A stretch of 64,000 bases of DNA from Candidatus Hydrogenedentota bacterium (GTDB lineage Bacteria > Hydrogenedentota > Hydrogenedentia > Hydrogenedentales > SLHB01): contig BTVY01000004.1 of the NCBI GenBank assembly GCA_045863335.1, positions 1 through 64,000 of the forward strand, given 5' to 3'. Shown here piece by piece: positions 20,139-64,000 of this stretch. How positions within the stretch are numbered: the stretch's first letter is position 1; every line of letters begins with the position of its first letter. The notes beneath the pieces were generated by a model, which saw only the letters and a program-made list of their open reading frames with translations, did not search any database and was not told the DNA's origin. The position numbers and the translations under genes are program-made.

Positions 20139-20142
20139 ACCC

Positions 20143-22909: not shown

Positions 22910-22913
22910 CGCC

Positions 22914-30410: not shown

Positions 30411-30416
30411 AGTCTG

Positions 30417-45482: not shown

Positions 45483-45671
45483 GAACTTAAGCCGAACCAA
45501 ACCGCCAACAAGACTTCTTTTCGGGAGCACGACCGTCCCTAAAGCTGCGAGGACCGATTAACCCCCTCGTGGCTTTAGGGCCGGTGGTGCAAACAAAGCA
45601 GAGATCTTTAACAACCCGACAACTAACTTGCGGCCACGCCTGTGGCGTGGTTCGCAGAAAGGAGAATTGAA

Positions 45672-46700
45672 ATGGCGACATTGACACGCGCACATGATGA
45701 GTTGTTCCGGCGCGCGCCGGATACACGGTTCGCGTCACTGGACGATCTTCACTCGCACTGCGATCGGGAGAAGAAGGAGTCCATGGAACGGTGGGTAGTC
45801 CCGGAAAAGTTCCGTTTCGTCGTAGACGGCGGTTATCCCCGGTTGGCCTTCAATGGGGATATGCCGCATACCATGTCCGACTGGAGCTTTTCCCAAGTAT
45901 GCCGCATGGCGGAGGTCCAGAAAGACACAGTGAACCGGCTTACTGCTGAGACCGCCAGTCGAGTGCTTATGGAAACCCTGCCAAGGGGCAGTCGGCCGAT
46001 TCAGGCATTTTCCTTGGGAGAGTCGCTGCGGTCGATTCACGGGGTGAGTTACCGTCGGCTGTACAATGCCGATTTGCTCAACACCGTCCGCGAGCACGCG
46101 GTGGGATTCTCTCCGCCGCAGGTGGCGGCGAATGGCGGCACCGGGTTGTATTGTGGCGAGCAGGACATGTTCTGTTTCCTCGTCGACCCGACCGGCTGGG
46201 TGGAGATCGAGAACGAAGCTTTCGCACCGGGGTTCTTCCTGTGGAATTCGGAGGTTGGCCGGCGGTCCGTGGGGATTCAGAGTTTCTGGTTCCAAGCGGT
46301 CTGCCAGAACCATATCGTCTGGGATGCCATCCCGGCGACGCAATACCACCGAAAGCATACGGCGAATGTCGATACGGCCCTGGACGAGATCCGGGAAACT
46401 ATCGACTACCTCGTTTCCAAACGGGATGAGCGCCGCGATCGCTTCGTTCGTATTGTGCAGCAGGCCATGAACATACGGCTGGACGATGACCTGGAGGAAA
46501 CGTTGCAGACGGTTCAGCAACAAGGTTTCAGCCGATCCCTGGCCAACGCCGCGCTGGAAGCGGCGCAGCGACAGGGCGCATTGACCCTGTTCTCCCTGAT
46601 TGATGCGCTGACGCGGCTTTCCCAGGAACGTCATTCCTACGCCGGAGACCGGGCGGACGCAGACGAACGCGCCGGGAAGTTGCTGGCGCTAGCCGCCTAG
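45672..46700 (+). CDS. DUF932-like mobile-element protein
   Basis: GFFLWNSEVG..S, VCQNH, ends LALAA; RBS aggag. Confidence 0.7.
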   Translation: MATLTRAHDELFRRAPDTRFASLDDLHSHCDREKKESMERWVVPEKFRFVVDGGYPRLAFNGDMPHTMSDWSFSQVCRMAEVQKDTVNRLTAETASRVLMETLPRGSRPIQAFSLGESLRSIHGVSYRRLYNADLLNTVREHAVGFSPPQVAANGGTGLYCGEQDMFCFLVDPTGWVEIENEAFAPGFFLWNSEVGRRSVGIQSFWFQAVCQNHIVWDAIPATQYHRKHTANVDTALDEIRETIDYLVSKRDERRDRFVRIVQQAMNIRLDDDLEETLQTVQQQGFSRSLANAALEAAQRQGALTLFSLIDALTRLSQERHSYAGDRADADERAGKLLALAA

Positions 46701-46830
46701 CTTCCAGCTTGTATCCACGGGCTCATTCCCACTTCTCACCTCGTTGTTTCTCACCCGCACCACCGGCCCAAAACAATGTAGGAAGCAGGCTTGCAGCCGC
46801 TCTTGCCAAAACGATATACCGGGAGGAATC

Positions 46831-47124
46831 ATGGGAGATGTTTGCGATCACAACGACTTGGAGCGCTTCCTGCGGTCGCCCGAAGGGCAGGAACATCTGG
46901 AAGGTTTCCGCAGAACTCTCATCGACCGCTCTATCGTCGATGTGGAGTTCTCTAACGAGATTCATGCCATCGTCTTGACCCTTCATCTGGACAATGGCGA
47001 ATCATTTGCTCTTTGTCAGGCGTCCTTGGAAGTGGACGCCATTCGGAAGGAATTCAGTGAAGTGTTGGAACGGGAGTTCAAAGAGGATTACCCCGATCCG
47101 ACATCGAACGATTCACCCTCGTGA
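46831..47124 (+). CDS. Acidic hypothetical protein
   Basis: RBS ggagg; 97 aa. Confidence 0.6.
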   Translation: MGDVCDHNDLERFLRSPEGQEHLEGFRRTLIDRSIVDVEFSNEIHAIVLTLHLDNGESFALCQASLEVDAIRKEFSEVLEREFKEDYPDPTSNDSPS

Positions 47125-47152
47125 GAACGTCAGAACCGGCCTGGCACTGCGT

Positions 47153-47701
47153 CTATCGTAGCGCCGGGCCTTTTTCTCGTCTCCGATTTCCACCGTTTTT
47201 CCAGTTCGTACTAATGGAAGGTAACCGGCAAATCCCATACTCGCTTCGCGTCCAGGCATAGTCTGAGGACCATACGTCGTTCACGAGGTTGTCGTACCAA
47301 CTGCATCGGCCGGTCATCTGGCAAGAATCGGCACTGATCTGGAGCACGAAGGTTCCCGTTCCGGCCAGGATGTGGGAGTCTACGCGACGGAAGCTTCCAT
47401 AGAAGGCGTTTCGCTTGATAGTCCCGCGGTAGACGAACAAGTCACCCGGTTTGTCTTGGACATGGCCGGTTCCCCAGACGTATCGGCCGAACTGTTGGAG
47501 CAAGGCGTCGATTTTGCGGCTTCTGGAGTTGCCGGAAGGCGTGGGATCATCGAAGCTCACGACCCAGGCGCCGTCTAGGTCCGGAACGTCGCCCACCACG
47601 TGCATACACAGACGAGCGAGTTGCCTTTGGAAGGCCGGTGTAAGTACACGAGCGACGAGCGCGAGAACGTAGGCGGCAATGTTCTGAAAGAGCGACTTCA
47701 T
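47153..47701 (-). CDS. Hypothetical membrane-anchored beta-barrel protein
   Basis: Hydrophobic N-terminus, PDLDGAW, beta-rich; overlaps the GNAT stop. Confidence 0.6.
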   Translation of the reverse strand: MKSLFQNIAAYVLALVARVLTPAFQRQLARLCMHVVGDVPDLDGAWVVSFDDPTPSGNSRSRKIDALLQQFGRYVWGTGHVQDKPGDLFVYRGTIKRNAFYGSFRRVDSHILAGTGTFVLQISADSCQMTGRCSWYDNLVNDVWSSDYAWTRSEYGICRLPSISTNWKNGGNRRREKGPALR

Positions 47702-48258
47702 GCATGGGTTGTTAAGTCTTTACAATATACGACCATGTCACCGCCTGCCGGAAGGTAACTTTCGACGCTTCCCACATGAAAGAACCCCATCGTTCGGTAG
47801 AACGCGCGGGCTTTGGCGAATTCCGGTGTGGAATAGGTTTCGATAAAGATTTTCATGTATCCAAATTGCTTTGCGAGGCGGCAGGCAAATTTCAGCATTT
47901 GCCTGCCGAGGCCCCGCTTCTGATGGTCCGGGTCCACGGCGAACCATGCCAGCCACACGTTCTGCGGGGGACCCCACAGATATTGATGGAGCCCGACAAC
48001 GCCGTCGATGCGGCCGTCGCGATCGAGCACGAAGTATCGTCGGCCATCATTCAGATCGTGTCGTTGGCAGGTGAAGTGGAATCCAAAGGTCTTCTGGGCC
48101 TGGCCCGCCTCGTCCTGATTCATGGCCCGCCCGATCAGGCGAGTTACCGCCGAGATATCCTCCACCGTCATCGGACGTGGTTCGTGCGCGCGCAGGCCGG
48201 TGGAATCGGACCTACGAGCGACGGTACCGGGCGCAAGGTGGGAGTTGTCCGCAATCAA
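47698..48258 (-). CDS. GNAT acetyltransferase
   Basis: FAVDPDHQKRGLGRQM, ARAFYRTMGF. Confidence 0.9.
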   Translation of the reverse strand: MIADNSHLAPGTVARRSDSTGLRAHEPRPMTVEDISAVTRLIGRAMNQDEAGQAQKTFGFHFTCQRHDLNDGRRYFVLDRDGRIDGVVGLHQYLWGPPQNVWLAWFAVDPDHQKRGLGRQMLKFACRLAKQFGYMKIFIETYSTPEFAKARAFYRTMGFFHVGSVESYLPAGGDMVVYCKDLTTHA

Positions 48259-48277
48259 GAGTTACGATCCTCTGGGA

Positions 48278-48335
48278 AATTTCCCACATGTGGGAAATTA
48301 TACGCGATACCATGATTTCCCGCAAGTGGGAAATC
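48278..48335. promoter_or_regulatory. Tandem palindromic operators between divergent GNAT and HTH genes
   Basis: AATTTCCCACATGTGGGAAATT (perfect 22-mer) and GATTTCCCGCAAGTGGGAAATC. Confidence 0.8.
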
Positions 48336-48336
48336 G

Positions 48337-48546
48337 ATGAACACATTAGCGAAAAGATTAGGAATTCGGCTGCGAGAACTCCGGGGAGATGAGTCTCAAC
48401 TCCAGTTCTCCAAGAAGCTTGGGATATCGAATTCGTCCCTTAACCGCATGGAATTGGGCGAACAGAACGTCTCTCTAAACACGCTGGAAGTCTTGTGCAA
48501 ACGGCTGAAATGTGATGTAGGGGATCTGTTCGCCGACCGCCGCTGA
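48337..48546 (+). CDS. Small XRE-family regulator
   Basis: LRELRG..SQ..FS.KLGIS.SSL.R.E.G..N.SL.TL. Confidence 0.9.
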   Translation: MNTLAKRLGIRLRELRGDESQLQFSKKLGISNSSLNRMELGEQNVSLNTLEVLCKRLKCDVGDLFADRR

Positions 48547-48658: not shown

Positions 48659-50194
48659 TTGTTAGCACGAATCCAATCTTGCGTCATACTGGGGATCGAT
48701 GGGATTCCTCTGTCCGTCGAGGTGGACAATCATCCGGGATTGAACAAACTCACGATTGTGGGATTGCCCGATACCGCCGTGAAGGAAAGTCAGGAGCGGG
48801 TTACCTCAGCGATCAGAAACTCCGGGTTTCGAGTTCCGAGGGGGGTCACAGTCGTCAACCTTGCGCCCGCGGACATTCGGAAGGAAGGGAGTTCACTCGA
48901 TCTTCCCATTGCGTTGGGTATCTTAGCGGCCACGGAACAAATCAATGGAGAGCGAATCTTCGAATACTCCACCGTCGGTGAGCTTGCACTCGACGGCTCG
49001 GTCCGCACCGTTGCGGGTGTCCTTCCAATGACTCTGTCATCTCGCGAACAAGGTCTTCGGGGAATTCTGATCCCAAAAGTCAACGCCCAAGAGGCTGGCA
49101 TCGTGCCGGATGTAAACGCGATTCCTGTAGAAACACTAACCGATGCAGTTGGCTTCATGACCGGAACGAGCGACATCGAGCCGTTCGTGACCAGCCTTGA
49201 GGCAGTGCTCCAGAACGGGCGCACGCACGTTGCCGATTTCAGCGATGTGAAAGGTCAAGCCCACGTCAAACGGGCGCTCACCATTGCGGCCGCTGGCGGC
49301 CACAACGTCCTCATGGTCGGGCCTCCTGGTACCGGCAAGACTATGCTGGCATCCCGGCTACCCGGAATCCTACCGGATATGACGTTTGACGAAGCTTTGG
49401 AAACCACTCGTGTGTATAGCGTGGCGGGAGCTTTGGGCAACGGCAGGCACCTTGTCGCGCAACGGCCGTTCCGGGCACCCCATCAAACCGCGACCACAGT
49501 GGCGATTTCCGGCGGTGGACACGGACAGCGGCCCATGCCGGGAGAAGTTAGCATGGCACATAATGGCGTCCTGTTTTTGGACGAACTGCCCGAGTTCAAT
49601 CGCGCCGCGCTGGAAGTTTTGCGGCAGCCTCTCGAGGAAGGGTTGGTGCACATCAGGCGAGCGCTCTATTCGGTAACATTTCCGTCGCGTTTCTTGCTCG
49701 TAGTGGCGCTCAATTCATGTCCCTGTGGATATCGTTCGCATCCGACCAAGTCCTGTCGTTGCTCGGTCGGCGAGATTCAACGATACATGTCCCGTCTGTC
49801 TGGGCCATTGCTTGACCGTATCGATATCCATGTCGACGTTCCTACCTTGACATACGACGAGATCGCCAATCGAGCGCCAACGGGTCCAACAAGCGCGGAA
49901 GTAAGAACCACAGTGCAAGACGCCCGTGACCGCCAACGAATTCGCTACAAAGGTCGGATAGCCTGCAACGCCAGACTGGATTCCGGTGCGATCAGAGAAC
50001 ACTGTCCGGTAAGCAAGGAATCCGAGCGGCTGCTGGAAAACGTCATGGATGAATTCGGCCTTAGCGCACGTGCTTACGATAAGATCCTCAGGGTGGCGCG
50101 AACCATCGCCGACGTGAAAGGAGCAGAACACATCTCGGAAATGCACGTGGCGGAGGCGGTTCATTACAGAAGTATGGATCGGCACCTTCCTTGA
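48659..50194 (+). CDS. comM: Second, full-length comM/YifB homolog
   Basis: Co-linear with the host 5' copy, then CPCG, SGPLLDRID, SARAYDKILRVARTIAD; lower GC3 throughout. Confidence 0.93.
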   Translation: MLARIQSCVILGIDGIPLSVEVDNHPGLNKLTIVGLPDTAVKESQERVTSAIRNSGFRVPRGVTVVNLAPADIRKEGSSLDLPIALGILAATEQINGERIFEYSTVGELALDGSVRTVAGVLPMTLSSREQGLRGILIPKVNAQEAGIVPDVNAIPVETLTDAVGFMTGTSDIEPFVTSLEAVLQNGRTHVADFSDVKGQAHVKRALTIAAAGGHNVLMVGPPGTGKTMLASRLPGILPDMTFDEALETTRVYSVAGALGNGRHLVAQRPFRAPHQTATTVAISGGGHGQRPMPGEVSMAHNGVLFLDELPEFNRAALEVLRQPLEEGLVHIRRALYSVTFPSRFLLVVALNSCPCGYRSHPTKSCRCSVGEIQRYMSRLSGPLLDRIDIHVDVPTLTYDEIANRAPTGPTSAEVRTTVQDARDRQRIRYKGRIACNARLDSGAIREHCPVSKESERLLENVMDEFGLSARAYDKILRVARTIADVKGAEHISEMHVAEAVHYRSMDRHLP

Positions 50195-50623
50195 GTATAG
50201 GGCCCCTCCGACGCTAACGCCATAATACGATCTGCAAGTCCCACAGCAACTCTACAACCCCCTCCATGCGAGATTTCGACAAGTGTAACAGGATGTTGCG
50301 CTTGTAATGTAAATCTTTTTTACACTTTCCTGGATAATGCGACCCTTTGTCTCGCTTAAGAAGATCGTCTTGCCTACCTTTTCGCCAATGACTTAGCAAA
50401 ATGCGAGCTTGCGAGACAGTTTCTGGTGTGGATCTTGCGTGTACACCCATAGTCGACAAAACAATTTCATGCGGGTACCGCGCGGCGATTGGATACAACC
50501 GAGAAAATGAGATCGATTACTGTGACAGGATTTTACTCTTGGCCGTCTTCCGCCAGTTCGTTGTCACGCGGAACTCTTAGCGTTGCGGAGGCGCGCGCAA
50601 GTTCTTGTCAGTACGGGGATTAT

Positions 50624-51037
50624 ATGTATGACCTAGATTCAATTCCTACGGAAGCCCAGATCAGGAAGTTCATCCGCCGCGGGCTCTTCGGAAAGAATGT
50701 CTATTGCCCGCAATGCAGGAATAGACGGGTCCATAAAGATGGCGCGCGGTATTGGTGCGCCAAATGTCGACGAAGGTTCTCGCTTCTTTCCCACACTTGG
50801 CTCCGCGACCTCAAAATTACGCTGCAAAAATGGTGGCTAATTCTGTGGTGTTGGAGTTCCCGCATGTCGCTCAAGCAAGCGGCCGACATCACTGGTCTGT
50901 CCGAAGCAACGGTTCGGCGCTGGTACACTCGGTTCCAGCAAAAAGCACCGAGGGATCCCAGCATACTCGCAAGTGCCCTCTCGCTGGACCAAGAATGTGA
51001 AGTGAGATGGTTGCTCGGTCCAGAAGAGAAGGTTTAG
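50624..51037 (+). pseudogene. IS1595-like transposase N-terminal fragment
   Basis: CPQC...YWCAKCRRRFSL Zn ribbon plus HTH; no DDE domain. Confidence 0.7.
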
Positions 51038-51257
51038 TCCAAGTAGTACGCTCGCTAGTGCAAAATTTCCCTGATAACAAAACGCAAAATTCCGCGACAA
51101 ACGTAAGAAAAATCACCGATCTATGCGCCAATTGGATAAGGGTTTGGGTAGTACTGGCGTCCCCCATGGCAAGCCCATTGACATTTCGAACGAAGTGTAG
51201 TACAGTCATATTTGGAACCCAGTCAAAAAAGGTAGCGAGAAATTGGAGGGTACACAA

Positions 51258-51368
51258 ATGTCCGGGAGCAGGAAAAATGTCTACGAGCCACCGAAAATCG
51301 AAACTTATGAGGAAAGTGACTTCGTTGCGGAGGCGGCTCTTGCTGACATAAGTTGCGACCAGCTGTAA
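51258..51368 (+). CDS. Putative RiPP-like precursor peptide MSGSRKNVYEPPKIETYEESDFVAEAALADISCDQL (not in ORF track)
   Basis: RBS ggagg at 51245; YxxP leader motif; directly upstream of the kinase gene. Confidence 0.7.
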   Translation: MSGSRKNVYEPPKIETYEESDFVAEAALADISCDQL

Positions 51369-52351
51369 AGGTGTTAGTGCCTTCGGTTGCGAATGAACTC
51401 TTCATAAGTGTCTTGGGTATAACGATTCTAATCAAGGGCACTAGGGGGAGTCCAGAGTTGAAACGCCTGCGGGAGCATTTTGCTCCCTATATTGAAGAGA
51501 AGGTCCCTGAGATAATTCACGCCAGCATCGGCGTCGAGCGAAACGGCGTAGATTCGGTGATCTCCTATGGTGATCGAGAGGCACATATAGAATTTCGTTC
51601 GCAGTGGCCGAATATTGAGCATTTTGTCCAAATGGTTTTAATTCAGCTTCGTCCGAAGTATTTCTTCCTTCATGCTGCGAGCATTTCTCAAGGCGACGAA
51701 TGTGTGCTGCTAATTGGCAGTACAGGCGCCGGGAAGTCAACGCTGGCAAGAACTCTCACTTCCTGGGGATTTACGATAGAATGCGAGGACGTAACGCCAA
51801 TAGACGTGAGAACTCAATCGGCCCATCGGTATCGTCCACAAATATGTTCCCAGAATGAAGATGCAACCCGACGTTCTGAGTCTTTCTGTGTGGACGCCGG
51901 TGGGTATGAATCACACCAGAAGCCGATCTCCCTGCTAATCTATTTGGGGAATTTGGACGATCTTTCTGTCATGGGACGCGAATTAACATTACGGACTCTG
52001 GAATCCAAATCAATTGGCGAACAATTTCGTGCGTGGCGAGTTCTCTGTCGACTTTGTCTTGGCGATGAGAATGCCGAACGAAATCCGTCAAGTACAGGTC
52101 CAGTTTTGATACCACGATTCTCGTTTAATGAGGCCCTGACAATGCGGAAGCTGACTCCGTCCACTGCGGTAAGAGTATTCTCAAAACACTTGCTTTATCC
52201 CGCACCTGACATTGGAGAAGTGATTCGCCAGTTCAGCCCAGTACTCGCTCGCTTGCCAATGTTTAACATAATTCACGGAAGCCCTGCGCAGCGGGCAGAG
52301 AGTGTAATTAAGTTATTCAATGAGCGGGCGAAATCCGCTTCCCTTGCCTAG
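51353..52351 (+). CDS. HPr-kinase-related P-loop kinase
   Basis: FLHAAS.......LL.G.TGAGKSTL....L...GF....ED. Confidence 0.8.
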   Translation: MRPAVKVLVPSVANELFISVLGITILIKGTRGSPELKRLREHFAPYIEEKVPEIIHASIGVERNGVDSVISYGDREAHIEFRSQWPNIEHFVQMVLIQLRPKYFFLHAASISQGDECVLLIGSTGAGKSTLARTLTSWGFTIECEDVTPIDVRTQSAHRYRPQICSQNEDATRRSESFCVDAGGYESHQKPISLLIYLGNLDDLSVMGRELTLRTLESKSIGEQFRAWRVLCRLCLGDENAERNPSSTGPVLIPRFSFNEALTMRKLTPSTAVRVFSKHLLYPAPDIGEVIRQFSPVLARLPMFNIIHGSPAQRAESVIKLFNERAKSASLA

Positions 52352-52418
52352 AGAAAGCGAATACGTTGTGACGGGGTGTCGGGGTGGGCGTAGATTAATA
52401 ACACTTGGGGAGAGAACG

Positions 52419-53585
52419 ATGAGAGACCTGGTGCAGAATCTTTGTTCGGCCTCTTTGGCATTTATTCTCATATCGACCATTTGCCTAGCTCAAGCTCCCA
52501 CGGACCGCCTTGTAGAGACAGGTTGTCTCAGTGGAACCGTTCCTGCTAACTACCCCGCGAAATCACAGTCCGAAACCAACAATAATAAGCCAATCCTCAT
52601 TGAAGGTTTAATCAATGGCGAGATATTCGTGTGTGCAGGGAAGATTTTTGAAGTGACCGCAAGCGGTGGTAGCGATTGTGATCTGAAACAGGGCAGCGGG
52701 TGTTCTGGCTGTTCCGGCATGCGGTGCGCTGAGAAATGGGACAATTTCAACGCCAACTACGGTTGGAGCGGCAGTGGTCTCGTTGACCAAGCGTACGGTG
52801 TTTGGGAATCAAAACACTTAGTTGAGGCTCCCGTGGATTGGGGGGCAAGCACAACGATCACGGTAACGCGAGAAGAATGTACTATCAAATCCGGCGAGAC
52901 TGCTGCAAACAAGACTTGTACTCTAAAGATAACTGCTACTGAGCCTTCGCGCAATTCATTGACGGTCTGTGCGCATACATCCTTGGGTTACAGTATGAGC
53001 ACGGCACAGCAGCTGATGGATGATGCAGCTAAAGAAGTCTATTTGCTCGACGAAGATAGCAATTCCGGTACTGAGGATATTCACTGTTGTACTGGCTTCA
53101 CGGCGAGTGGAAGCCTTGTAACATTTACTGACAATAATGTGTCTTCGGCCGACACCGTGGAAGATGGAACGTTTGACGGAATCTCGGATGAAGATACATA
53201 TAGAGATATGGTTGAAGACCAAGACGCGAATGGTGACTGGTATGGTATAACCTGGAATAATGAGAGTAAGTACATGAAGATAGTTGTTGTGGACGAGATC
53301 CTGTGGACTCGAACCTTGGGGAATATCCCGCAGAATAATCGTCCTGGTTTCTATTTGCCGGCGAGACACAAACTCTACTACGCGGTCAACGCCAACGCGA
53401 AGGTGTGGGCCCATGAATATGGGCACTACGCGGGACTCGCAGATTTGTACGACGCGCAAGGTCCGCTGCAGGGTTATGAAAATAACTTTATGGCGACACT
53501 CACTGCTGGCGGAGTGACCACAGTGAATGACCCAGATTTGGGTGCCGGTACAAACCAGTGTACAAAATTGACGAACGCAAATTAG
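52419..53585 (+). CDS. Secreted Cys-rich protein with C-terminal zincin motif (variant 1)
   Basis: Signal peptide; WAHEYGHYAGLADLY...NNFM. Confidence 0.8.
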   Translation: MRDLVQNLCSASLAFILISTICLAQAPTDRLVETGCLSGTVPANYPAKSQSETNNNKPILIEGLINGEIFVCAGKIFEVTASGGSDCDLKQGSGCSGCSGMRCAEKWDNFNANYGWSGSGLVDQAYGVWESKHLVEAPVDWGASTTITVTREECTIKSGETAANKTCTLKITATEPSRNSLTVCAHTSLGYSMSTAQQLMDDAAKEVYLLDEDSNSGTEDIHCCTGFTASGSLVTFTDNNVSSADTVEDGTFDGISDEDTYRDMVEDQDANGDWYGITWNNESKYMKIVVVDEILWTRTLGNIPQNNRPGFYLPARHKLYYAVNANAKVWAHEYGHYAGLADLYDAQGPLQGYENNFMATLTAGGVTTVNDPDLGAGTNQCTKLTNAN

Positions 53586-53770
53586 AATTCCTGCGGAATT
53601 AGATCACCGTCGCGCAGTCGTGATGTCTGTTGAGTGGAGTCGGTAGCGGGCATATATTCGTTTGCATATGAGAGTTGAAACCAGACGAGCCTGTACGCCT
53701 ACGAAGTTCGGTACATGGCAGGAGCTTCGTAAACGGCTATAGGCAACTCCTAGTGTGGAGGGCATGTAAA

Positions 53771-54619
53771 ATGAAATTCATTACAAGAATATCTGTTTGT
53801 ATGACTGTATTGCCGTTCGCGGTCGGTTTTTCCCATGCCCAGCCAGTGGATACTAATAGTAGTAGTGAGCACTTAGCCCTCACCCAACAGGAGAGGGATG
53901 AAGTTCGCAGTAGCCTCGACCGGGTTACGGCAGAGGTATTCGCGGATGCAATCGCCAAGGATTATGAGTCCAAGAATTTAAACATATCTCCATTCCTGGA
54001 AACCATAGTTCTTGACGAGAGCGAGAGTGTATCGACTAGAACTCAGGCAATATTCTTGCTCGGACAATTGGAAGAGAATAGCTCTACGGACGTATTTATA
54101 GACATTATCGATTCACGACTGAAGCAAGAAATGATGAAGGATGACATCGAGTTGATTAGGTGTTCAATGATTGCACTCGGCTGGCAAGGAGACAAGCGTG
54201 CATTAGAGCTTCTCTTTAAGTTGGCTTCAAAGGAGTTTTGGGCTCAGGTTACGCCCGATGGTATCGCATGCGCCGATTGCGACACTATTCAGGAGGGTAA
54301 TGTGATCACCTATTTACGCAAACAGGCCCTGTCGGCTCTTGCAGGATCGGGGACTGATGAAGCGATAAAGGCATTCGCGACGGGCGAGGGGTTACCGGCG
54401 GACCTAAGCAGAAGCTTTCCCCATCGTCTAGACATTGCTGTTTACCGTAAGTGCGACATAATCGCCATACCGGACAAGCTTTCGAAGCTCGATCAGGATG
54501 AGCGTTCCCAATATTGGGATACCTGGTCATGGATTCAGAAAGAATTCGGATCGCGCGAAGAAATTTATCAGAGGTTTAGGAACGAATCCGGTCAAGCCCC
54601 GTCGGAGCCGGAAGGCTAG
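53771..54619 (+). CDS. Secreted HEAT-like partner of variant 1
   Basis: Signal peptide; paralog of 4750-5589. Confidence 0.85.
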   Translation: MKFITRISVCMTVLPFAVGFSHAQPVDTNSSSEHLALTQQERDEVRSSLDRVTAEVFADAIAKDYESKNLNISPFLETIVLDESESVSTRTQAIFLLGQLEENSSTDVFIDIIDSRLKQEMMKDDIELIRCSMIALGWQGDKRALELLFKLASKEFWAQVTPDGIACADCDTIQEGNVITYLRKQALSALAGSGTDEAIKAFATGEGLPADLSRSFPHRLDIAVYRKCDIIAIPDKLSKLDQDERSQYWDTWSWIQKEFGSREEIYQRFRNESGQAPSEPEG

Positions 54620-54723
54620 AAGACTCACGAACGAAGACCCAGAGTTCCTTGCCTAGAGAAAGCGAATACGTTGTGACGGGGTGTCGGGGTGGGCGTAGAT
54701 TAATAACACTTGGGGAGAGAACG

Positions 54724-55848
54724 ATGAGAGACCTGGTGCAGAATCTTTGTTCGGCCTCTTTGGCATTTATTCTCATATCGACCATTTGCCTAGCTCAAGC
54801 TCCCACGGACCGCCTTGTAGAGACAGGTTGTCTCAGTGGAACCGTTCCTGCTAACTACCCCGCGAAATCACAGTCCGAAACCAACAATAATAAGCCAATC
54901 CTCATTGAAGGTTTAATCAATGGCGAGATATTCGTGTGTGCAGGGAAGATTTTTGAAGTGACCGCAAGCGGTGGTAGCGATTGTGATCTGAAACAGGGCA
55001 GCGGGTGTTCTGGCTGTTCCGGCATGCGGTGCGCTGAGAAATGGGACAATTTCAACGCCAACTACGGTTGGAGCGGCAGTGGTCTCGTTGACCAAGCGTA
55101 CGGTGTTTGGGAATCAAAACACTTAGTTGAGGCTCCCGTGGATTGGGGGGCAAGCACAACGATCACGGTAACGCGAGAAGAATGTACTATCAAATCCGGC
55201 GAGACTGCTGCAAACAAGACTTGTACTCTAAAGATAACTGCTACTGAGCCTTCGCGAGACGCGATCACAGTTTCGAAGCACACGTCAGGAAGCATTAACC
55301 CGAATATACAAATCTTAACGGCGCAACAAACCAAAGAAGTATTGCTGAAGGACGACGACACTCTAGCGCTTACGGCGGACAACCACTGCTGCAAAGGCTT
55401 CAAGCATTCGGCAACTTACATCTTTGATGACAGCGACGTACACTCTTCCCTGACAGGTTTTACTTCAATCGATACTCAGGCTAAGCACAATGCAATTAAA
55501 GGATCGTGGGCCGACGGTAGCAAGAAGAAACGATACATAATGGTGGATAGTTACACGTTTGACTACAATAATAATGTGCCTACGCAGACGCAGCAGCGCA
55601 GCTATACAACTGCGAATCATGTATACATGAACATGGCTAACGCTACTGATTGGACATGGATTCACGAATGGGGACACGAGGCTGGCGATTTGGCGGACCT
55701 CTACTGCAGAACGCCTGGCTCATCAGCGTGGTGCCAGAATGAGGGCGACCCAAACCCTGCCTATCCCAACAACTGGATGAACATTCACAACGGGAAATTT
55801 GTGGGCACCGTCTCGCCAGACGGCGATCAATGTGCCGAGCTCCCGTAG
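54724..55848 (+). CDS. Secreted Cys-rich protein with C-terminal zincin motif (variant 2)
   Basis: Same N-terminus as variant 1; WIHEWGHEAGDLADLY...NNWM. Confidence 0.8.
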   Translation: MRDLVQNLCSASLAFILISTICLAQAPTDRLVETGCLSGTVPANYPAKSQSETNNNKPILIEGLINGEIFVCAGKIFEVTASGGSDCDLKQGSGCSGCSGMRCAEKWDNFNANYGWSGSGLVDQAYGVWESKHLVEAPVDWGASTTITVTREECTIKSGETAANKTCTLKITATEPSRDAITVSKHTSGSINPNIQILTAQQTKEVLLKDDDTLALTADNHCCKGFKHSATYIFDDSDVHSSLTGFTSIDTQAKHNAIKGSWADGSKKKRYIMVDSYTFDYNNNVPTQTQQRSYTTANHVYMNMANATDWTWIHEWGHEAGDLADLYCRTPGSSAWCQNEGDPNPAYPNNWMNIHNGKFVGTVSPDGDQCAELP

Positions 55849-55939
55849 TTGCGGCTTAAGTAAAAGGCCAGCAAGCAGGTCTTGTCTGGCTCCTTTCACC
55901 AGAAGTAGCCAGTAGACTCACAAAAGAGGAGGCGTCCCA

Positions 55940-56734
55940 ATGTTAACGATAAGGCCGCAGCATTTTCAGTTACTCCTCATTACTTATTTCGGCGTATTCG
56001 CCGTTGTACATGCTCAGTCGGCGGCACCTGAAGGGGGAGCCAATAACGAAGTCGTCGATTTGATAGTAGGTAACGAATTGACAGTCAAGGGAAAGGCAAA
56101 GATTGACTCGATTCTTGAGAATAGGCTTGTAAATTTTGACGATCAAATGATGGTGAATCTTGTAGAAATGTATCCAGAAACCGCTGTGGCGGAATATCTA
56201 ATCGAAGTGGCAGATGATAGTAATCGGCACGCGGTCACGCGCCAGCGCGCCATGGCATGGCTCGCCTACACGAAAGATGATCGAGCTGAAGACTTCCTGC
56301 GGAGCTATGTTGAACGACTCACCAACCTAGAGAAGAAGGATTTAGACTTCGTGGAGTTTAATCTGCTCCACGCAGCGATAATGTCGCAGGGATCAATTGG
56401 GAGCAATTCTTCGATTGACTATCTTTTACAAATATCCAGCAAGGACTTTTGGGAAAGGAAAACTATAAGCTGCAATTGGCTAAATATGGACGCGGAAGGT
56501 ATAGAAACTCATATGCGAAAGGCTGCGCTTTGGGGTATAGTCAGATCCGAAACAAGCCGCGCAGTTGCACTATTCCCAAGCGATTCCAATCCAATGCCAG
56601 GCCTGCTCAGCGAAGAGGAAGCCGCCAGTTTAGCCCGTACCGCGAGGTTACGTGCGCAGAAAGTATACGTCGATCCGGAAGCTCAAAGAGAGGCATCTCA
56701 ACAGTCAGAACCCTCGAACATCCAAGGAGAATAG
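55940..56734 (+). CDS. Secreted HEAT-like partner of variant 2
   Basis: RBS ggagg; signal peptide; paralog of 5688-6467. Confidence 0.85.
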   Translation: MLTIRPQHFQLLLITYFGVFAVVHAQSAAPEGGANNEVVDLIVGNELTVKGKAKIDSILENRLVNFDDQMMVNLVEMYPETAVAEYLIEVADDSNRHAVTRQRAMAWLAYTKDDRAEDFLRSYVERLTNLEKKDLDFVEFNLLHAAIMSQGSIGSNSSIDYLLQISSKDFWERKTISCNWLNMDAEGIETHMRKAALWGIVRSETSRAVALFPSDSNPMPGLLSEEEAASLARTARLRAQKVYVDPEAQREASQQSEPSNIQGE

Positions 56735-56737
56735 TTC

Positions 56738-58447
56738 GTGGTACGAATAGGAACGGCGGTGGGTTATATTACCACCTGCGCAGGGTGGTTACGGGCGCCG
56801 TCGATACTAGGCATGGCTCCACTGGTTGTGATGGGCTGTTATAGATCTGACGTTTACCATCAGGAGCAGAGTCACCGTATCGAAATTGAGAAAGCGGAGG
56901 GAGAGTCGCAGACTATAGTTGGACATGAAGACTTCCTTAGTTCCCGCGAAGCAAGGACTGTAGTAGAGTGCATCCGAAACGGCAACGCTCCCCAATCAAA
57001 TTGTTACGCACAACTGGAGCGTCGTGGCGTCAGAACCGAGTCGATTCTAGCGATTCTAGAGCAGCTTGAAGTCGAGGATTTTGAGAAACATGCAAGCAGT
57101 CTCGAAGCGTTACTCGCACTAATCGAGCAATCAGAAGACAGCGTTTCGATCAGTTTAAGCGCACTTGAAGCGTTGTCAGTACGGGACATAGAAATATACG
57201 AGTGTTGGGTTGAGCTTTGCGAAAACTCGGGGAATATCGAAACGAAATTCGCGGCTCTGTACCAGAAGTATGTATATCACCAACTTCGCGAGCAACAAAG
57301 TGAAGTAGCCCGCAGCGCATTAGATTTATGGATATTTTGTCCCAAGTTAGTGCAAGAAAAGAACTTAGGCCTTCGACTTCAGGGGTCCCTTGAAAGCGCG
57401 GGGTACATTCTTGAATCCGATCTTCTGGGTCGAGAATTGGACCCCCAAGCAGTTGCCACGTACATAAAGACTGAATTGTGGCGAAAGAAAGTGCCAGGAA
57501 AGACATCCGGTAGTTACGAAGGTGATGCTATTGGCTTTTCGACACGTTTACCACAATTCTCCTTCCTAGACAGTGCGTTACACGCGGATTTCTGGCCAGT
57601 TATGAATTCGGTCTGTGAGGCGTCCAGGGCGGGAGATTGGCAATTAGTGCTGGAAGGTATAGCGACATGCAATTCGGTCTTGCGGCATCATCTCGTTGAA
57701 GGCCAAATGTCGATACATGACTTGCGCGTCGTGCGTGCAGCGGCGCTAGTTATCTACGCCGCAATGGATAAACTAGTTCTTGCGCATGAGCTAGGCCAAT
57801 CGCATAATATCACTCCGTTCGCGCTTGCATTGGAAAAGAGTTTGTGCACGCAACTAATCTGCGAACTTGCGATCCGCGAGTCCGAACTTAATCTCGCTGC
57901 CAACAGGGGACAAGCCTTAGGAAGCATCGAATGGTTGTTGGATTTTGCCAGAACTGAAGAATTACCCGCGATAACTCTAGAAGCGTATGGATTTGTTGTC
58001 GAGAAATTCCCAGGTACAGAGAATGCACTGGATGCGCAGTGCCTTCGGGGGGAATTGCTAGAGAAGGAATTCGGAAACCACCGCTCAGCAGTTAAAGATT
58101 ATTGGGCAGTTTTAGAGAGGGATTTATCGCCAGACAAGCGAGAGTATATAACTTTCCGACTCGCAAAGGCATTATTGCTCGGGATTAGGGATCCTCTGGC
58201 AGCTCAGGAGGTCCTCGTAAATTATCTGGAGGATCACCCTAACGGCGCCCATGCTGTGGGTTTGATGTACTTGCTGGCTTTGGCAGAATACGAGACGGGT
58301 TTGGAACCGGATGCGATCGAACGGATGCGGCGAATCGCAACGGGGCCGGATGGGCAGGACGAGAACGTAAGAAGTGCGGCCGAGAACTGGATCTCTCGAC
58401 TAAATGGAGAAAGCGGTGTGTCGCTACATGATACGCAGGCCAATTAG
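56738..58447 (+). CDS. TPR-containing putative lipoprotein
   Basis: VVMGC lipobox-like motif; C-terminal TPR-type repeats (VVEKFPGT, YLEDHPNG). Confidence 0.7.
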   Translation: MVRIGTAVGYITTCAGWLRAPSILGMAPLVVMGCYRSDVYHQEQSHRIEIEKAEGESQTIVGHEDFLSSREARTVVECIRNGNAPQSNCYAQLERRGVRTESILAILEQLEVEDFEKHASSLEALLALIEQSEDSVSISLSALEALSVRDIEIYECWVELCENSGNIETKFAALYQKYVYHQLREQQSEVARSALDLWIFCPKLVQEKNLGLRLQGSLESAGYILESDLLGRELDPQAVATYIKTELWRKKVPGKTSGSYEGDAIGFSTRLPQFSFLDSALHADFWPVMNSVCEASRAGDWQLVLEGIATCNSVLRHHLVEGQMSIHDLRVVRAAALVIYAAMDKLVLAHELGQSHNITPFALALEKSLCTQLICELAIRESELNLAANRGQALGSIEWLLDFARTEELPAITLEAYGFVVEKFPGTENALDAQCLRGELLEKEFGNHRSAVKDYWAVLERDLSPDKREYITFRLAKALLLGIRDPLAAQEVLVNYLEDHPNGAHAVGLMYLLALAEYETGLEPDAIERMRRIATGPDGQDENVRSAAENWISRLNGESGVSLHDTQAN

Positions 58448-58620
58448 ATCGCATATCATGTATCTGCTTTCACAAACGTGCACCGGCAGGATGTGACTCA
58501 CTAAACGTGAAATCGTAATCAGGTTGTAACACATAACAGGAACCGAAGCTCGGTCGGCGAGTGTATCGGACTTTGACTGAAAAGCGGCAGGAAGAGCGTT
58601 TACTGCCAGTATGGTAGGGA

Positions 58621-60003
58621 GTGTTAACTGTGCAAAAAAGGAATAAGGGCTGGCCTACAAGGATGGTGTTGGGGTTCTCCACGGCGATGCCAAATAGAGT
58701 ATTGGGGCACGGGCGGCTTAAGACCTGGACAAGATCCATCCTGCTGGCTGTTCACTCAGTAGCTCTTATGTCGAGAGTTTGGGCTGCTGATCCTGTCGCA
58801 ATCGAAGTTGGCACATGGAGCGCTGAATACGGCCGGGAATGGTTGACTACCGAGTTGACGGCTTTCCAGGAAGCGTATTCAGATGTTTCGGTATCGACTG
58901 TCTCACTTTTTGACCCCTCTCGATACAAAAATCCCGTTGAGAAATTTCCTCGGCTAGCTGAGAATGTAATCGCAATAGACAGTGAGTCTGGCTACGAAAC
59001 GGTGTATTTCGTGGAACGTGACATGCTAGTTCCAATTGAAGATTTCTTGCCTGACCCCGACTTCGACTTTGATAGCTTTTACCCGAAGGTATTCGACAGC
59101 GTCCGATATCAGGGAAAGACTTGGGGTGTTCCTTGGACGTACTGGACCGCGTTCTTGGTTATAGACGAGCAGTTGTTCAATGAATCCAAGATTCCTTTGC
59201 CTCAATCTTGGAAGGACGTACACGAAGCTGCACGGAAGCTAACTAAGGATCGTGATGGCGACGGACAAGTGGATCAATGGGGAATGAGGCTAACTTTCTT
59301 TGACGAAAGTACGCCGTACGCCGCGGTAAGCAAAGTTTTGCAAGATGGTGGACATGTAATGAAGAACGGAATGTTCGACATTAACCATCCTGCATTTATT
59401 GACGCCTTCGAGTTCTTTGGGGAACTCGCAAATGACAGATCAGCCTCAAAACTCGATGCAAGGCAGCCCGAAGAGTTCTTGCAGGACCAGGACGTACGAT
59501 ACGCAATGTTCATTATACCTAGCTTCGATTTGCCACAAATAGAGAATCGGACTGACTTGCGAGTTATGCCGCTGCCGACCGATAAGGAGAAGGTGTGCAT
59601 CGCGGAGTGCAGACGATATTTTGCAATAAGAAAATCTACTCCACAGCAAGAAATGGCTTCTTGGAAGTTTGTTAAGTGGATGACACGAGAAGGGATATCC
59701 CTGCCTACGAATTGGGACGTGTTTCCTTGCAGAAGTAACATTACAGGACGCGAGGATTTTCGGCTCCAATCGAAGAGCAAAATCCAGGGATTGGCAGAAG
59801 CGCTTACTACAAACTCAATTGCAGTTGACCCCGGAGATCCGGTGTACGGCAGGAGGGATGCCTTAATATACATAGTTTCGGGGTTGGCGGGTCCAATGGT
59901 TGAGGGTCAGCCGTTGTCCCCTATTGTTGAGAAAATTGAGATCCAAGCAAATACCATGATACGGCAGATTCTACCTGATATCGCCAGAGATAGTCCGCGG
60001 TAA
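58621..60003 (+). CDS. Extracellular solute-binding protein (sugar ABC type), no permease adjacent
   Basis: YQGKTWGVPW, PQSW.DV..AA.KLT.D.DGDG.VDQWG, ASWKFVKWM. Confidence 0.85.
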   Translation: MLTVQKRNKGWPTRMVLGFSTAMPNRVLGHGRLKTWTRSILLAVHSVALMSRVWAADPVAIEVGTWSAEYGREWLTTELTAFQEAYSDVSVSTVSLFDPSRYKNPVEKFPRLAENVIAIDSESGYETVYFVERDMLVPIEDFLPDPDFDFDSFYPKVFDSVRYQGKTWGVPWTYWTAFLVIDEQLFNESKIPLPQSWKDVHEAARKLTKDRDGDGQVDQWGMRLTFFDESTPYAAVSKVLQDGGHVMKNGMFDINHPAFIDAFEFFGELANDRSASKLDARQPEEFLQDQDVRYAMFIIPSFDLPQIENRTDLRVMPLPTDKEKVCIAECRRYFAIRKSTPQQEMASWKFVKWMTREGISLPTNWDVFPCRSNITGREDFRLQSKSKIQGLAEALTTNSIAVDPGDPVYGRRDALIYIVSGLAGPMVEGQPLSPIVEKIEIQANTMIRQILPDIARDSPR

Positions 60004-60151
60004 GCTTTTGGCCATATGATGGGTCGAAGATTATAGTCCGTGATCGCACGCGACTTACCAAGTTCCTGAGTATAAAACGGGTAACCTCCGATTTGGAGCG
60101 TTTGAACAACAGAAAAGATCTGAAACTATGCACAGGAAAATAAGGTAGAAA

Positions 60152-61195
60152 ATGATGGCCGTAGCGGTGTTTCTCCTAAGTGGACTTGTAAGTCAGTACA
60201 ACCACCCACAAGATTTGTTGAAGGAATTGCAGAGACAATACGTATTACCAGGGGGGCTTGTTGAAGCACTTGGTGAGGGGTCCCTGGACCAAGTTGAACA
60301 AGAATATATTGATCAGTACTCTCAGGCTATTAGCGAGGGAGACGGCGTTGCGGTTCTGGCTTCGTTGAATTCAATTCTTAGCCGAGGGAGTATGACTGAG
60401 GAGCTACGTTCATACTTGCAGCTCGAGAAAGCGGTATGGGAGCTTGGTGTCGAGCAGTATGGCGAGGCTATTGAGACTATGTCTAGTTTGCGGAGTATGT
60501 TGCCGAATGAAGGAATGGAACAGTGCCTTCTAGATTTAGCCGAATTAAAGACTCTCTCATCAGCATACGAGTTAATGGATGTTCCTTTTCAATCTGTCTT
60601 AACCAAATATGAAGAAGCGTTTATAACCCATGACCCTTTCAACGTTTATATGGCCAACGCCTATTATGATTGCGCGAGACTAGCATACAACGGCGGAACG
60701 AAAAATCAGGACACTACATTACTAAACCTGGCCCAACAACGACTTTCGGAATGTGAAGGAATTATCGTCGCAATCGGCACAGATAATGATGAATTGATGA
60801 GAAAGGAGTACGCGAGCCTGGTAGCTCTGGGCCGTAACATAAAGACAATGTCGGCAAAATTGGATCTCGCGGTGCGGAGAGCCGAGGAAGGGAAGATATC
60901 CAGAGTTTCAACCTCTGATTACGCCAAAGGAATTGAGATTCCGAAACCCGAGTTTTCCCAGTTCCGAGGGAGTTCCGAGTCGATAACACCTAGCGAAGCG
61001 GAGTACTCTGCGTCTGTGAAGAACTCGGAAGTTTCCAATATCGCGGTGATCGAGCAACCGTCCGACGAGGCCAGAGAGTCATCGCGTAGGAGTGAGACAC
61101 ATTCGGGTCATTTGTATCTCATTGGAGCGTTTTCGTGCGGGCTACTGGCTGTAGTTGTCTATCGATGGAAGTTTTCGCGAGCAGCCGGAAAATAA
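60152..61195 (+). CDS. Exported helical protein with C-terminal membrane anchor
   Basis: Hydrophobic N-terminus; C-terminal TM plus basic tail (LLAVVVYRWKFSRAAGK). Confidence 0.7.
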   Translation: MMAVAVFLLSGLVSQYNHPQDLLKELQRQYVLPGGLVEALGEGSLDQVEQEYIDQYSQAISEGDGVAVLASLNSILSRGSMTEELRSYLQLEKAVWELGVEQYGEAIETMSSLRSMLPNEGMEQCLLDLAELKTLSSAYELMDVPFQSVLTKYEEAFITHDPFNVYMANAYYDCARLAYNGGTKNQDTTLLNLAQQRLSECEGIIVAIGTDNDELMRKEYASLVALGRNIKTMSAKLDLAVRRAEEGKISRVSTSDYAKGIEIPKPEFSQFRGSSESITPSEAEYSASVKNSEVSNIAVIEQPSDEARESSRRSETHSGHLYLIGAFSCGLLAVVVYRWKFSRAAGK

Positions 61196-61278
61196 CAAAT
61201 AACAAACAACGAGCCCCAGGCGAATGAAATTAATGTGAATTTTTCCTGAACCATGCGAGGGTGTCGCTTTAGCCAGTA

Positions 61279-62691
61279 ATGCATGATTTCGTACGGACAA
61301 GGTGTATGACCTGTACTATAAATAGGAAAACTGCAAAGGTTGACGCGTGCGTCGCAGCGACGATGCTTTCATGGCCTAAGCCATATCTAGCGTCGGATTC
61401 AATTGAATCCCTGCAAATTGGGGGCGTTTTGAATTCCTCCCGATTCCGTGACTTCGTTATTGCGCATCGAATCTACCCTCTGGTTTTACGTAACCTCTCT
61501 CACCTAGGACGAGGTTCTATAGAAGTCCACCATCGACAACTTGCAGGAGTACTCTATAAGGTGCTTCTGCGGGATTGGTGCCCGACTTTTGCTATACTGC
61601 GAGATACCTACATCGCAACTAGGGCTATATTCGAAAGCCTATCACAACCGTTTACCATATTGAGGGGGTTGCATTTGGCTTCGCTGTACTACGAGGAGCC
61701 ACACGATCGCGTCTTTGGGGATATAGACATACTATGCATGGACAAGCCGAACATGGTTACGCTTAGCGCGTTCGCAGACGCTGGTTTTCTTCCATTAAGA
61801 CTGGCAGATTTTCGTGCGGCCCAAGAAAAGTACGTCTGCCAGATAGAACTAAGGCATAGGATGACCGGCGTACGGCTGGACATCAACTGGAAATTGACCG
61901 GCAACGGACAAAATGGTGGTTTGAGTTTCGATACGACCAAAGTGTGGGAGCGCGCCCAAGGGAAATCGGCAGTCGAATACGAACTTTCCCCAACAGACAC
62001 GCTGTTAGATGTCGCTAGGCACATCGCACAAGGCCATGAATACGATGGTTATACTGTGCAGGCGTGTGCTGACATTTGTCGCATAATGATCCGAGATGGC
62101 GAAAGAATCGATTGGGACTACTTTGAGAGCCAAGTACGACTCGCAAAATTTGAGCGAGCTGCTGCGTTTTTTCTTGATTACTATGATCGTAATTATGCCT
62201 TAAATGAACGAATGCCGAGATTCAGCGAGCGTTTTCTCGGATTTCGAAACTTCGGAGTGCCCCTCTACGAGCGAAGATATATGCGCCACTTAATTACTGT
62301 TCAATCATGGAATTTCCGAAGACGCTCAAACAGTGTCGGCCGACTTTTCATAGCAAATGTCTGTCTAATTGTGAAGTACTTTTCGACCACAAATGGTGCT
62401 GACCTCGTGAGACTAGGCCGCATAACGGTTATTTGGCCGCCAAGCGGTATTGTGATTTTACTCGATGACGAAGCGTTTACGGGTGCACTTTACATGAAGA
62501 GGATGCGTGTCTACGTAATGCTTTGCACATACCTATTTCCGGGGCTCGTGTTTGGGGTGTCTACCAGATTAGTTTGCATGATTTTGTCCCTACTGCATCC
62601 TCGCAATCGCCGCAAGCAAGCGTTCTTGATGGGCAAAATAGAGAGTGGCCTCGCACGTAGCGAATGTGGTGAAAAGGAGAAAATGGTGTGA
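61279..62691 (+). CDS. Nucleotidyltransferase-family (NTP_transf_5-like) protein
   Basis: LRG..LA..YY..P..R..GDIDIL, LDINW. Confidence 0.8.
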   Translation: MHDFVRTRCMTCTINRKTAKVDACVAATMLSWPKPYLASDSIESLQIGGVLNSSRFRDFVIAHRIYPLVLRNLSHLGRGSIEVHHRQLAGVLYKVLLRDWCPTFAILRDTYIATRAIFESLSQPFTILRGLHLASLYYEEPHDRVFGDIDILCMDKPNMVTLSAFADAGFLPLRLADFRAAQEKYVCQIELRHRMTGVRLDINWKLTGNGQNGGLSFDTTKVWERAQGKSAVEYELSPTDTLLDVARHIAQGHEYDGYTVQACADICRIMIRDGERIDWDYFESQVRLAKFERAAAFFLDYYDRNYALNERMPRFSERFLGFRNFGVPLYERRYMRHLITVQSWNFRRRSNSVGRLFIANVCLIVKYFSTTNGADLVRLGRITVIWPPSGIVILLDDEAFTGALYMKRMRVYVMLCTYLFPGLVFGVSTRLVCMILSLLHPRNRRKQAFLMGKIESGLARSECGEKEKMV

Positions 62692-63725: not shown

Positions 63726-63771
63726 AAAATCATTTAGGGTGAGATTCACTCAGAGGAGTTAAAGGAGTCCG

Positions 63772-64000
63772 ATGTCGAATATGAATAAGGAAATGCTTCT
63801 ACCGAAGTGGGTGCCCGGAATTGTCAAACACGATTTAGGTTCTGAGTCATTTCTCCATGATGAGCAGAATGAGCGCATCCACGTGCTTAATTGCACTGCG
63901 AGTCTTATCTGGGATCATTGCGATGGTCATACTTCCTATCAAGAGATGCTTGGTATTTTACTGAGAGAGTTTTCGGATGTTACGGTTGATGTGCTACGAA
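63772..64000 (+). CDS. PqqD-family (RiPP recognition element) protein, runs off the window
   Basis: My translation: ...IHVLNCTASLIWDHCDGHTS..EM...L...F; RBS aaggag. Confidence 0.8.
   Translation, partial: MSNMNKEMLLPKWVPGIVKHDLGSESFLHDEQNERIHVLNCTASLIWDHCDGHTSYQEMLGILLREFSDVTVDVLR

Follow-up and report, generated by a model that had tools for sequence, protein, structure and literature searches.

A composite island within comM of a Hydrogenedentota bacterium carries a second, complete comM with a Pro-to-Ser exchange beside the crossover

The 64,000-nucleotide stretch analysed here, called the window throughout, comprises positions 1-64000 of contig C4 (BTVY01000004.1) in a draft genome of Candidatus Hydrogenedentota bacterium, and window and contig share one numbering. 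The genome of 6.75 Mb is assembled in 105 contigs with a completeness of 99.4% and a contamination of 0.9%. Our subject is comM, the gene for ComM/YifB, an AAA+ helicase used in natural transformation. The native comM of this genome is split, and a second comM of full length lies between its two halves. In our view this arrangement is probably due to a composite, recombinase-moved island of ~71.6 kb that sits in the native gene and carries a replacement comM, with the exchange of Pro353 for Ser in that copy as the candidate for what makes it a poor substrate of the recombinase.

The 5' half of the native gene (8820-9878) comprises 353 codons, ends in A-M-N-P and is followed directly by a TGA stop codon at 9879-9881, which is made up of the TG crossover dinucleotide and the first base of the island. 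An earlier note, drawn from the letters of this DNA alone, had placed the cut at the AMNP motif, and the motif GCCATGAACCC does close the truncated half at 9867-9877, its only occurrence in the window. By itself the motif match does not exceed chance (at least one match in 75 of 100 shuffles), and the observation rests on gene-level evidence. A GC-rich 3' half of the host gene, which the same note expected beyond the window, is present at C4:81525-81995, a further 31 kb away from the full copy; its third-position guanine-cytosine (GC) content is 0.85, and it is 100% identical to the gene of G005, a genome of the same genus. G005 and a second genome of the genus, G003, carry an uninterrupted comM, in which the empty site reads ...AACCCC TG CCC... 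and to which the flanks align up to base 9877 and again from 81525. Since both halves match these two genomes, whose gene is continuous, the native comM is split by an insert of ~71.6 kb and is left as two dead halves. Along the contig the GC content is ~0.62 before 9.9 kb and 0.46-0.58 from 10 to 82 kb, after which it is at the genome mean of 0.60.

Among contigs assembled from sequencing runs, only those of run X1 cover the island side. The left junction is spanned by a 16.6-kb contig of this run, which is not independent evidence because X1 is possibly the source sample. The contigs of runs X2, X3 and X23 are confined to parts of the native 5' half, to which they are 90-99% alike, and end near the junction. 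One short X1 contig departs from the stretch at 9877, and no excised form was found in the run contigs, which are contig-level data only and speak neither for nor against excision.

The crossover maps to a TG dinucleotide that forms the first two bases of the first Cys codon in the CPCG of the NPCPCG motif. At the junction, TG is the sole sequence common to the left attachment site attL (9879) and the two right sites, attR-A (C4:68337) and attR-B (C4:81525). The 24-base arm on the island side of attL is a perfect 22-base inverted repeat of C4:68315-68336 at right end A, has one mismatch against C4:81503-81524 at right end B, and is conserved in four other genomes (G110, G112, G021 and G092). 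A TG core with inverted arms is likewise found at the junctions of G021, G092 and G112, with no long direct repeats. The attP of serine integrases has a 2-bp core with imperfect inverted arms, and as the 2-bp core is flanked by inverted arms here, the junction anatomy fits such a site.

Recombinase 1, encoded beside the left junction, overlaps the end of the native 5' half (9853-9878), and its last seven codons and stop codon are host sequence. The protein contains the stretch R-V-S-T-E-D-Q, which we take to be the catalytic motif. Its Resolvase and Recombinase domains score above the Pfam cut-offs, and its zinc ribbon (Zn_ribbon_recom, PF13408) scores 20.7 bits (E = 5.5e-4), under the curated cut-off of 25.3 bits. 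Homologues with 63-77% identity are encoded at the same position beside split comM genes in G021, G092, G110 and G112. Each right end encodes a triple helix-turn-helix (HTH) protein on the minus strand with its start codon a few bases from the junction; at right end B the gene begins nine bases from it (C4:81516-81524). Because these genes cross or abut the junctions, the C-terminus of recombinase 1 and the promoter of the HTH gene would differ between the integrated and the circular form. Taken together, the recombinase domains, the anatomy of the attachment sites and the empty sites identify the element as an integrative island of the large-serine-recombinase type with predicted activity, the zinc ribbon being the weakest part of this assignment. 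No directionality factor was identified in the island.

The full comM copy lies 38.8 kb inside the island. It begins with a TTG codon at 48659, preceded five bases upstream by GAGGA, and its 511 codons are intact up to the stop at 50194. The three domains of ComM are each matched over the full profile length (ChlI, 2.3e-44; Mg_chelatase, 1.7e-90; Mg_chelatase_C, 1.2e-31), and residues 9-511 match the solved ComM 8rxd with an E-value of 1.5e-114. The nucleotide-binding motifs are kept, including the motif Asn and PLLDRID; 8rxd reads AAMNPCPCG where the full copy reads VALNSCPCG. The full copy is 70% identical to the truncated native half over 352 residues, with the stretch YSVTFPSRF(M/L)LVVA conserved between them. 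The third-position GC content is 0.62 in its 5' part and 0.57 in its 3' part, compared with 0.85 in both native halves. In trees built from the separate halves both halves of the copy group with the same foreign clade and not with the host, the nearest relative being G014 (78% and 72% identity). The 3' half shares 62% identity with its native counterpart, 93% with an island-type comM scar further along the contig and 72% with G014. These results bear out the earlier note, which had described a complete island-borne comM with nearly identical protein sequence around the motif and lower GC on both sides of it, had taken its 3' half not to be the displaced host half, and had proposed the phylogeny of both halves as a check. 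By these comparisons the gene is drawn from another lineage of the same phylum.

A genome search with the full copy detected two more comM 3' fragments, at 68325-68807 (91% identical) and 81513-81995 (61%). The full copy could in principle be attR, in which an island 5' part is fused to the displaced host 3' half, as some elements restore their target in this way. We reject this reading, which the earlier note had named as one that would refute its own, and assign it practically no probability: the 3' half is foreign, being far closer to the scar and to G014 than to the native gene, the native 3' half is intact elsewhere, and it is comM and not a right end that lies upstream of the CPCG codons in the full copy.

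Among the island-borne copies the nonsynonymous divergence (dN) is 0.08-0.19, the synonymous divergence (dS) is saturated at at least 1.5, and dN/dS is about 0.05-0.08. As dN is low despite saturated dS, the full copy is under purifying selection and has been retained as a working gene while borne on the island, and it is this conservation alone that suggests helicase activity and a role in transformation.

The arrangement recurs among relatives. In a scan of the phylum covering 135 genomes, which added two genomes and no new case to the scan of the order, comM is cut at this codon with a TGA in five (G000, G021, G092, G110 and G112). A full-length second copy is present in four of these five, the others being 74-78% identical to the copy in the window. 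The halves and the spare copy lie on one contig in G000 and G092 and on two contigs in G021 and G112. The islands share two TrwB-like ATPases, a SWIM protein, a PD-(D/E)XK nuclease, a DUF932 protein, a second serine recombinase and the right-end HTH gene; a GNAT acetyltransferase and a small HTH protein are also shared by the G021 island. Viral contigs were also scanned with recombinase 1 and the spare ComM as queries, and no relative was found.

G092 belongs to another family, and its layout is contained in a single contig of 245 kb. This recurrence makes it very improbable that the arrangement is an assembly or binning chimera of two organisms, as might be suspected from a draft in 105 contigs with shifts in GC along the contig. 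Further arguments against a chimera are the exact attachment-site junctions at a conserved codon, the high completeness and low contamination of the genome, and the X1 contig across the left junction, with the reservation on its independence made above.

Breaks at a different place in comM were seen as well. In seven other genomes of the order (G091, G031, G029, G041, G089, G101 and G119) the gene is broken at about residue 214-220. G091 has two comM parts 10.5 kb apart on one contig, and in G031 a fragment of residues 216-505 comes after a full copy. At this position comM has a second insertion point, which probably serves a different element.

The integration motif itself differs between the two kinds of copy. 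Positions 49706-49723 of the full copy read GCG CTC AAT TCA TGT CCC (A-L-N-S-C-P), in agreement to the base with the ALNSCPCG that the earlier note had reported there. When the motifs are counted, as that note had suggested, all four island-borne copies read ALNS and all five split host genes AMNP. The codons used by the island copies are different, CTC AAT TCA in the window and TTA or TTG, AAC and TCG in the others. For comparison the genes were grouped by genomic context, with four second copies in split-comM genomes set against 40 sole copies; this replaces an earlier count in which the groups had been set by the ALNS motif itself and which was circular. Among the 187 columns that are near-invariant in the 40 sole copies, residue 353 is the only one altered in all four island copies, and in the whole alignment Pro353Ser is the only residue that the four share and that is absent from all 40. 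Pro is retained at this position in 39 of the 40 sole copies. The codon of residue 353, one position among 511 aligned, abuts the TG crossover, and the location of the exchange is informative regardless of the count. At the DNA level it changes CCN to TCN, three bases before TG; in the left half-site only the positions 9 and 3 bases before TG differ consistently between the used host sites and the island copies.

In a wider comparison, full-length copies from relatives read AMNP in 32 of 37 cases; the five exceptions (AFNP twice, AFNL, ALNP and ALNS) are the sequences most closely related to the island copy. In a set of 80 loci drawn from many phyla, Asn-Pro occurs in 78 of 81 full-length matches, the remaining three being two Asn-Ser, which are again island copies, and one that is unreadable. 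The 120 best database proteins comprise 90 with AMNP, 19 with ALNP, nine with ALNS and one each with AFNP and AFNL. Since the exchange of Met for Leu is also found in related sole-copy genes that read ALNP and is characteristic of the donor clade, Pro-to-Ser alone is associated with the island. The recoding at the integration motif described in the earlier note is thus real and private to the island copies as far as Pro353Ser is concerned, whereas its Met-to-Leu part is not specific to the island. A scan of metagenome contigs for the island-side arm, aimed at the codons in front of TG at further left junctions, found only two loci, both with AMNP and both near-copies of the G110 and G112 junctions.

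Alternatively, the spare comM might be a neutral passenger from a former host and Pro353Ser a lineage marker with no effect on recombination. The island copies do fall in one clade with the sole copies of other genera (G014, G006 and G125), which makes a single capture plausible, and Ser and Pro alternate within this clade. Against a passenger stand the purifying selection across saturated synonymous divergence, the retention of Pro in nearly all sole copies and cross-phylum matches (39/40 and 78/81), and the position of the only private change, in the codon next to the crossover. In addition, a second loss of Pro, the AFNL of G006, lies 600 bp from a recombinase-1-like remnant. We therefore regard the passenger reading as rather unlikely. 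The comM in question is the sole copy of G006 (locus L048, G006:C354 10875-13224); the remnant corresponds to residues 382-445 with 62% identity, and the surroundings otherwise look chromosomal.

The island is composite, with two right ends and two recombinases. Its second comM 3' scar, C4:68337-68807, is joined to right end A exactly at TG. Compared with the full copy, the first 41 bases after TG are identical and the rest is 86% identical. As dN is 0.052 and dS 0.637 when the scar is compared with the full copy's 3' half, the scar derives from a different functional allele and not from a local duplication.

Two histories may account for this composite. In the first, an island with recombinase 1, right end A and its own comM would have inserted into the comM of an earlier, related island, of which the scar, a DUF1573 gene, an RHS-repeat gene, a TMEM260-like gene and right end B would be the remnant. 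Had the inner left junction then recombined with the outer right one, excision would have yielded the present composite, which would have entered the host comM. On this account the left half of the targeted gene is lost, so its motif is not readable.

In the second history the full copy would itself be a restored hybrid of two island alleles, still island-borne and foreign. An outer island would then have run from recombinase 1 to right end B, with a comM formed by the present 5' part and the scar at C4:68337, and an element made up of the present 3' part, the block 50195-67764 and right end A would have nested in it, followed by excision between non-partner junctions. Consistent with a hybrid, the low-GC block (0.48) is unlike both sides (~0.55), and its open reading frames (ORFs) are without homologues in the other islands. 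The genes behind the scar (DUF1573, RHS, TMEM260-like) belong to the set of the G021 island, a TMEM260-like gene also lies directly upstream of the comM in the G112 island, and similar footprints occur in two metagenome-assembled genomes (MAGs) of other phyla (L091 and L092). On the other side, a hybrid requires as many events as the simpler history or more, the left arm matches right end A perfectly and right end B with one mismatch, and GC in the left part of the island also falls to 0.46-0.50. Third-position GC (0.62/0.57/0.63), tblastx of the flanks downstream of the gene and the identities of the half-genes to 19 relatives do not separate the two histories. Gene content and GC thus lean to the second history and arm symmetry and step count to the first; a restored hybrid is a serious possibility, which we nevertheless place below even chances.

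Related scars were noted elsewhere. G076 contains two junctions of a right end with a comM 3' part in tandem and a third partial fragment within 3.3 kb (locus L070, G076:C606 1288-4602). L091 (11057-18081) and L092 (10713-17171) come from MAGs labelled Bacteroidetes and Kryptoniota. In both, a chromosomal full comM (AMNP) downstream of glnS is followed by 6.5 kb of unrelated secreted-protease cargo with no recombinase and then by a right-end-like arm that shares the GGCAACGC core and meets a comM 3' fragment at TG. Over their first 307 bases the two 3' copies in L091 differ by a single base, which looks like gene conversion. A footprint of this type would follow from excision between non-partner junctions of a nested pair.

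A large-serine-recombinase island with a replacement comM, the reading that we prefer, would work as follows. The island has been inserted at the TG in comM and has thereby destroyed the native gene, and its own comM would replace the lost function, leaving the host free of the cost of the insertion. If a circular island carried attP together with a good, equally oriented attB, it would be expected to recombine with itself into two dead circles; because such a circle would fall apart, the island copy would have to be a poor substrate, and Pro353Ser may be what lowers its recognition by the recombinase. The proposal of the earlier note that the island comM is immune to its own integrase is, in this sense, a reasonable inference. 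Any protection is not absolute, in that right end A, joined to the island-type scar, indicates that a related island once entered an island-borne comM; the present element would be the resulting stack.

Several points weigh against this reading. All genomes compared are metagenome bins. The island is present in G110 (92% complete), where no full comM was found with this query. We know of no natural transformation in this phylum. The four island copies belong to a clade of seven (support 98/94), and as they share ancestry, the count of four in four is weak and close to one event. In a FastTree phylogeny of 113 proteins the alternation of Ser and Pro in the clade amounts to at least five changes, at least two of which are forced by well-supported branches; this fits repeated origin or reversion. 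Because the scar sits at an exact recombinase junction, an island-type comM once served as attB, and as the near-identical right half-site was used, any protection by Pro353Ser would be only partial or recombinase-specific. Were the full copy a restored hybrid, the ALNS left half-site would have been used at least once.

Rather tentatively, one may ascribe a double role to the island comM, which would both replace the destroyed gene and, weakened by Pro353Ser, act as a poor but usable secondary docking site. Self-recombination of the island would thus be prevented, yet newcomers could still stack in resident islands once the chromosomal site is taken. By excision between non-partner junctions such stacks would give rise to composite islands, or to cassettes that lack a recombinase and lie next to a repaired comM, such as the scars in L091, L092 and G076. 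The Ser/Pro switches in the tree would then be traces of comM moving between island and chromosome.

Integration that restores the target gene is known for prophage e14 or phage 21 at icd and for islands at tRNA genes, dusA and prfC. The island studied here resembles these elements in avoiding the cost of striking a conserved gene. Such elements, however, carry a substitute end that is fused in frame, whereas here a dead half remains and a separate whole gene lies inside the element. A gene-restoring junction was accordingly rejected, as the 5' half ends in TGA at the core and both 3' fragments are preceded by antisense sequence of the HTH gene. In the Listeria comK prophage and in skin and SPbeta of Bacillus, regulated excision restores a split gene. 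These too are serine or tyrosine recombinase elements that interrupt a functional gene at a defined position, but the function comes back by excision, and here it would return through a second copy.

Two systems are closer with respect to the target. Integration by a large serine recombinase into a 'magnesium chelatase' gene, portions of which are found on both flanks, is described for sr1WO, a variant of the Wolbachia prophage WO (PMC9203015). The likeness lies in a serine recombinase acting on a gene of the ComM/YifB family; the difference is that sr1WO is a prophage and not a defence island, and the passages of that report on which we draw mention no element-borne full copy of the target. 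In Acinetobacter baumannii, comM is described as a hot spot for mobile elements, many of them with defence systems, and its interruption lowers transformation (PMC11472951). These AbaR/AbGRI elements share with the present island the comM target and the defence cargo. AbaR elements move by Tn7-like transposition and leave the cell without ComM, whereas the present island brings a replacement. We rejected a Tn7-like comM transposon of the AbaR type, since no transposase families of the Tn7 type (TnsABC) were found among the 73 ORFs scanned and the junctions are recombinase attachment sites. In a literature search of limited scope we came across no published element that brings a complete substitute for the gene it targets, altered at the crossover.

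Mobile elements inserted in competence genes are commonly interpreted as a means of shutting off transformation, by which the host could otherwise remove them. If our reading is true, this island family does the opposite, striking comM and handing back a working copy. It would separate comM as a convenient conserved landing site from comM as a gene hit in order to kill it, a distinction that thereby becomes testable. The island would also be a natural example of an element that needs the copy of its own target to be a poor substrate, with a single amino-acid candidate beside the crossover. Pro353Ser would directly help to map the attB features recognized by a large serine recombinase, and the nested scars point to a simple way for defence islands to accumulate at a single locus.

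Table 1. Coordinates of the native comM remnant, the left attachment site and the island features in the window
Feature	Position	Strand	Basis or remark
Native comM 5' half	8820..9881	+	Pfam ChlI and truncated Mg_chelatase; 99% identical to same-genus G003/G005 (353 columns)
attL crossover dinucleotide TG	9879..9880	.	Comparison of three junctions and empty sites
Island-side arm of attachment site (P' arm)	9881..9904	.	22-base inverted repeat of right-end arms
Large serine recombinase 1, 506 aa	9853..11373	-	Pfam Resolvase PF00239 2.5e-34, Recombinase PF07508 2.1e-19
SIR2-HerA defence pair (cargo)	12369..15510	-	PADLOC HerA 4.9e-156, SIR2 6e-113; Pfam
Backbone: two TrwB/HerA-like ATPases, small ORF, SWIM protein, PD-(D/E)XK nuclease	17010..23681	.	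Pfam
Defence-type cargo: TIR effector, multiubiquitin/E1-like/DUF6527 genes, CapP-like M78 peptidase	24161..31265	.	Profile searches
Large serine recombinase 2, 520 aa	40766..42328	-	Pfam; homologues with 50-52% identity in G021, G092
Backbone upstream of spare comM: DUF932, two small ORFs, GNAT acetyltransferase, 69-aa HTH_3 regulator	45642..48546	.	Pfam
Island-borne full-length comM, 511 aa, foreign in both halves	48659..50194	+	Pfam, trees, dN/dS
attB-equivalent stretch of spare comM	49688..49747	+	TG 49718-49719; Ser353 codon TCA 49715-49717, Pro in host
Low-GC (~0.48) cargo block	50195..64000, on to C4:67764	+	Ends in right end A (triple-HTH gene), joined to scar C4:68337

The backbone genes behind the SIR2-HerA pair have counterparts in the G021 and G092 islands, with tblastn identities of 38-68%. 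The genes directly upstream of the spare comM have homologues in the G021 island, with 76% identity for the HTH regulator. The G092 island contains homologues only of DUF932 and of the ORF at 46744, and a match to the 69-residue HTH protein (64%) lies beyond its right junction. For the low-GC block behind comM, tblastn with 13 ORFs detected no homologue in the other islands.

G092 contains two homologues of recombinase 2. In the window, the 3' end of the recombinase 2 gene together with ~45 bases beyond it (40721-40899) occurs in extra copies at 37598-37776, 39087-39317 and 26313-26440, which are 76-94% identical. These copies point to a second element family within the island, either inserted repeatedly or left behind as remnants.

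The RHS-repeat gene, located between the comM scar and right end B, encodes a protein of 2187 residues with a peptidase C39 domain and TPR repeats (C4:70382-76945; locus L006 6382-12945) and has a homologue in the G021 island. The low-GC block contains a direct repeat of 610 bases, 100% identical between 52342-52951 and 54647-55256, that covers the starts of the neighbouring ORFs 52320-53585 and 54649-55848. Finally, two host genes upstream of the native comM (4837-5598 and 5704-6448) are copied in the cargo at 53867-54629 and 55956-56700, with nucleotide identities of 82% and 76%; the host pair lies in a GC dip of 0.55, and one of the two has weak HEAT repeats.

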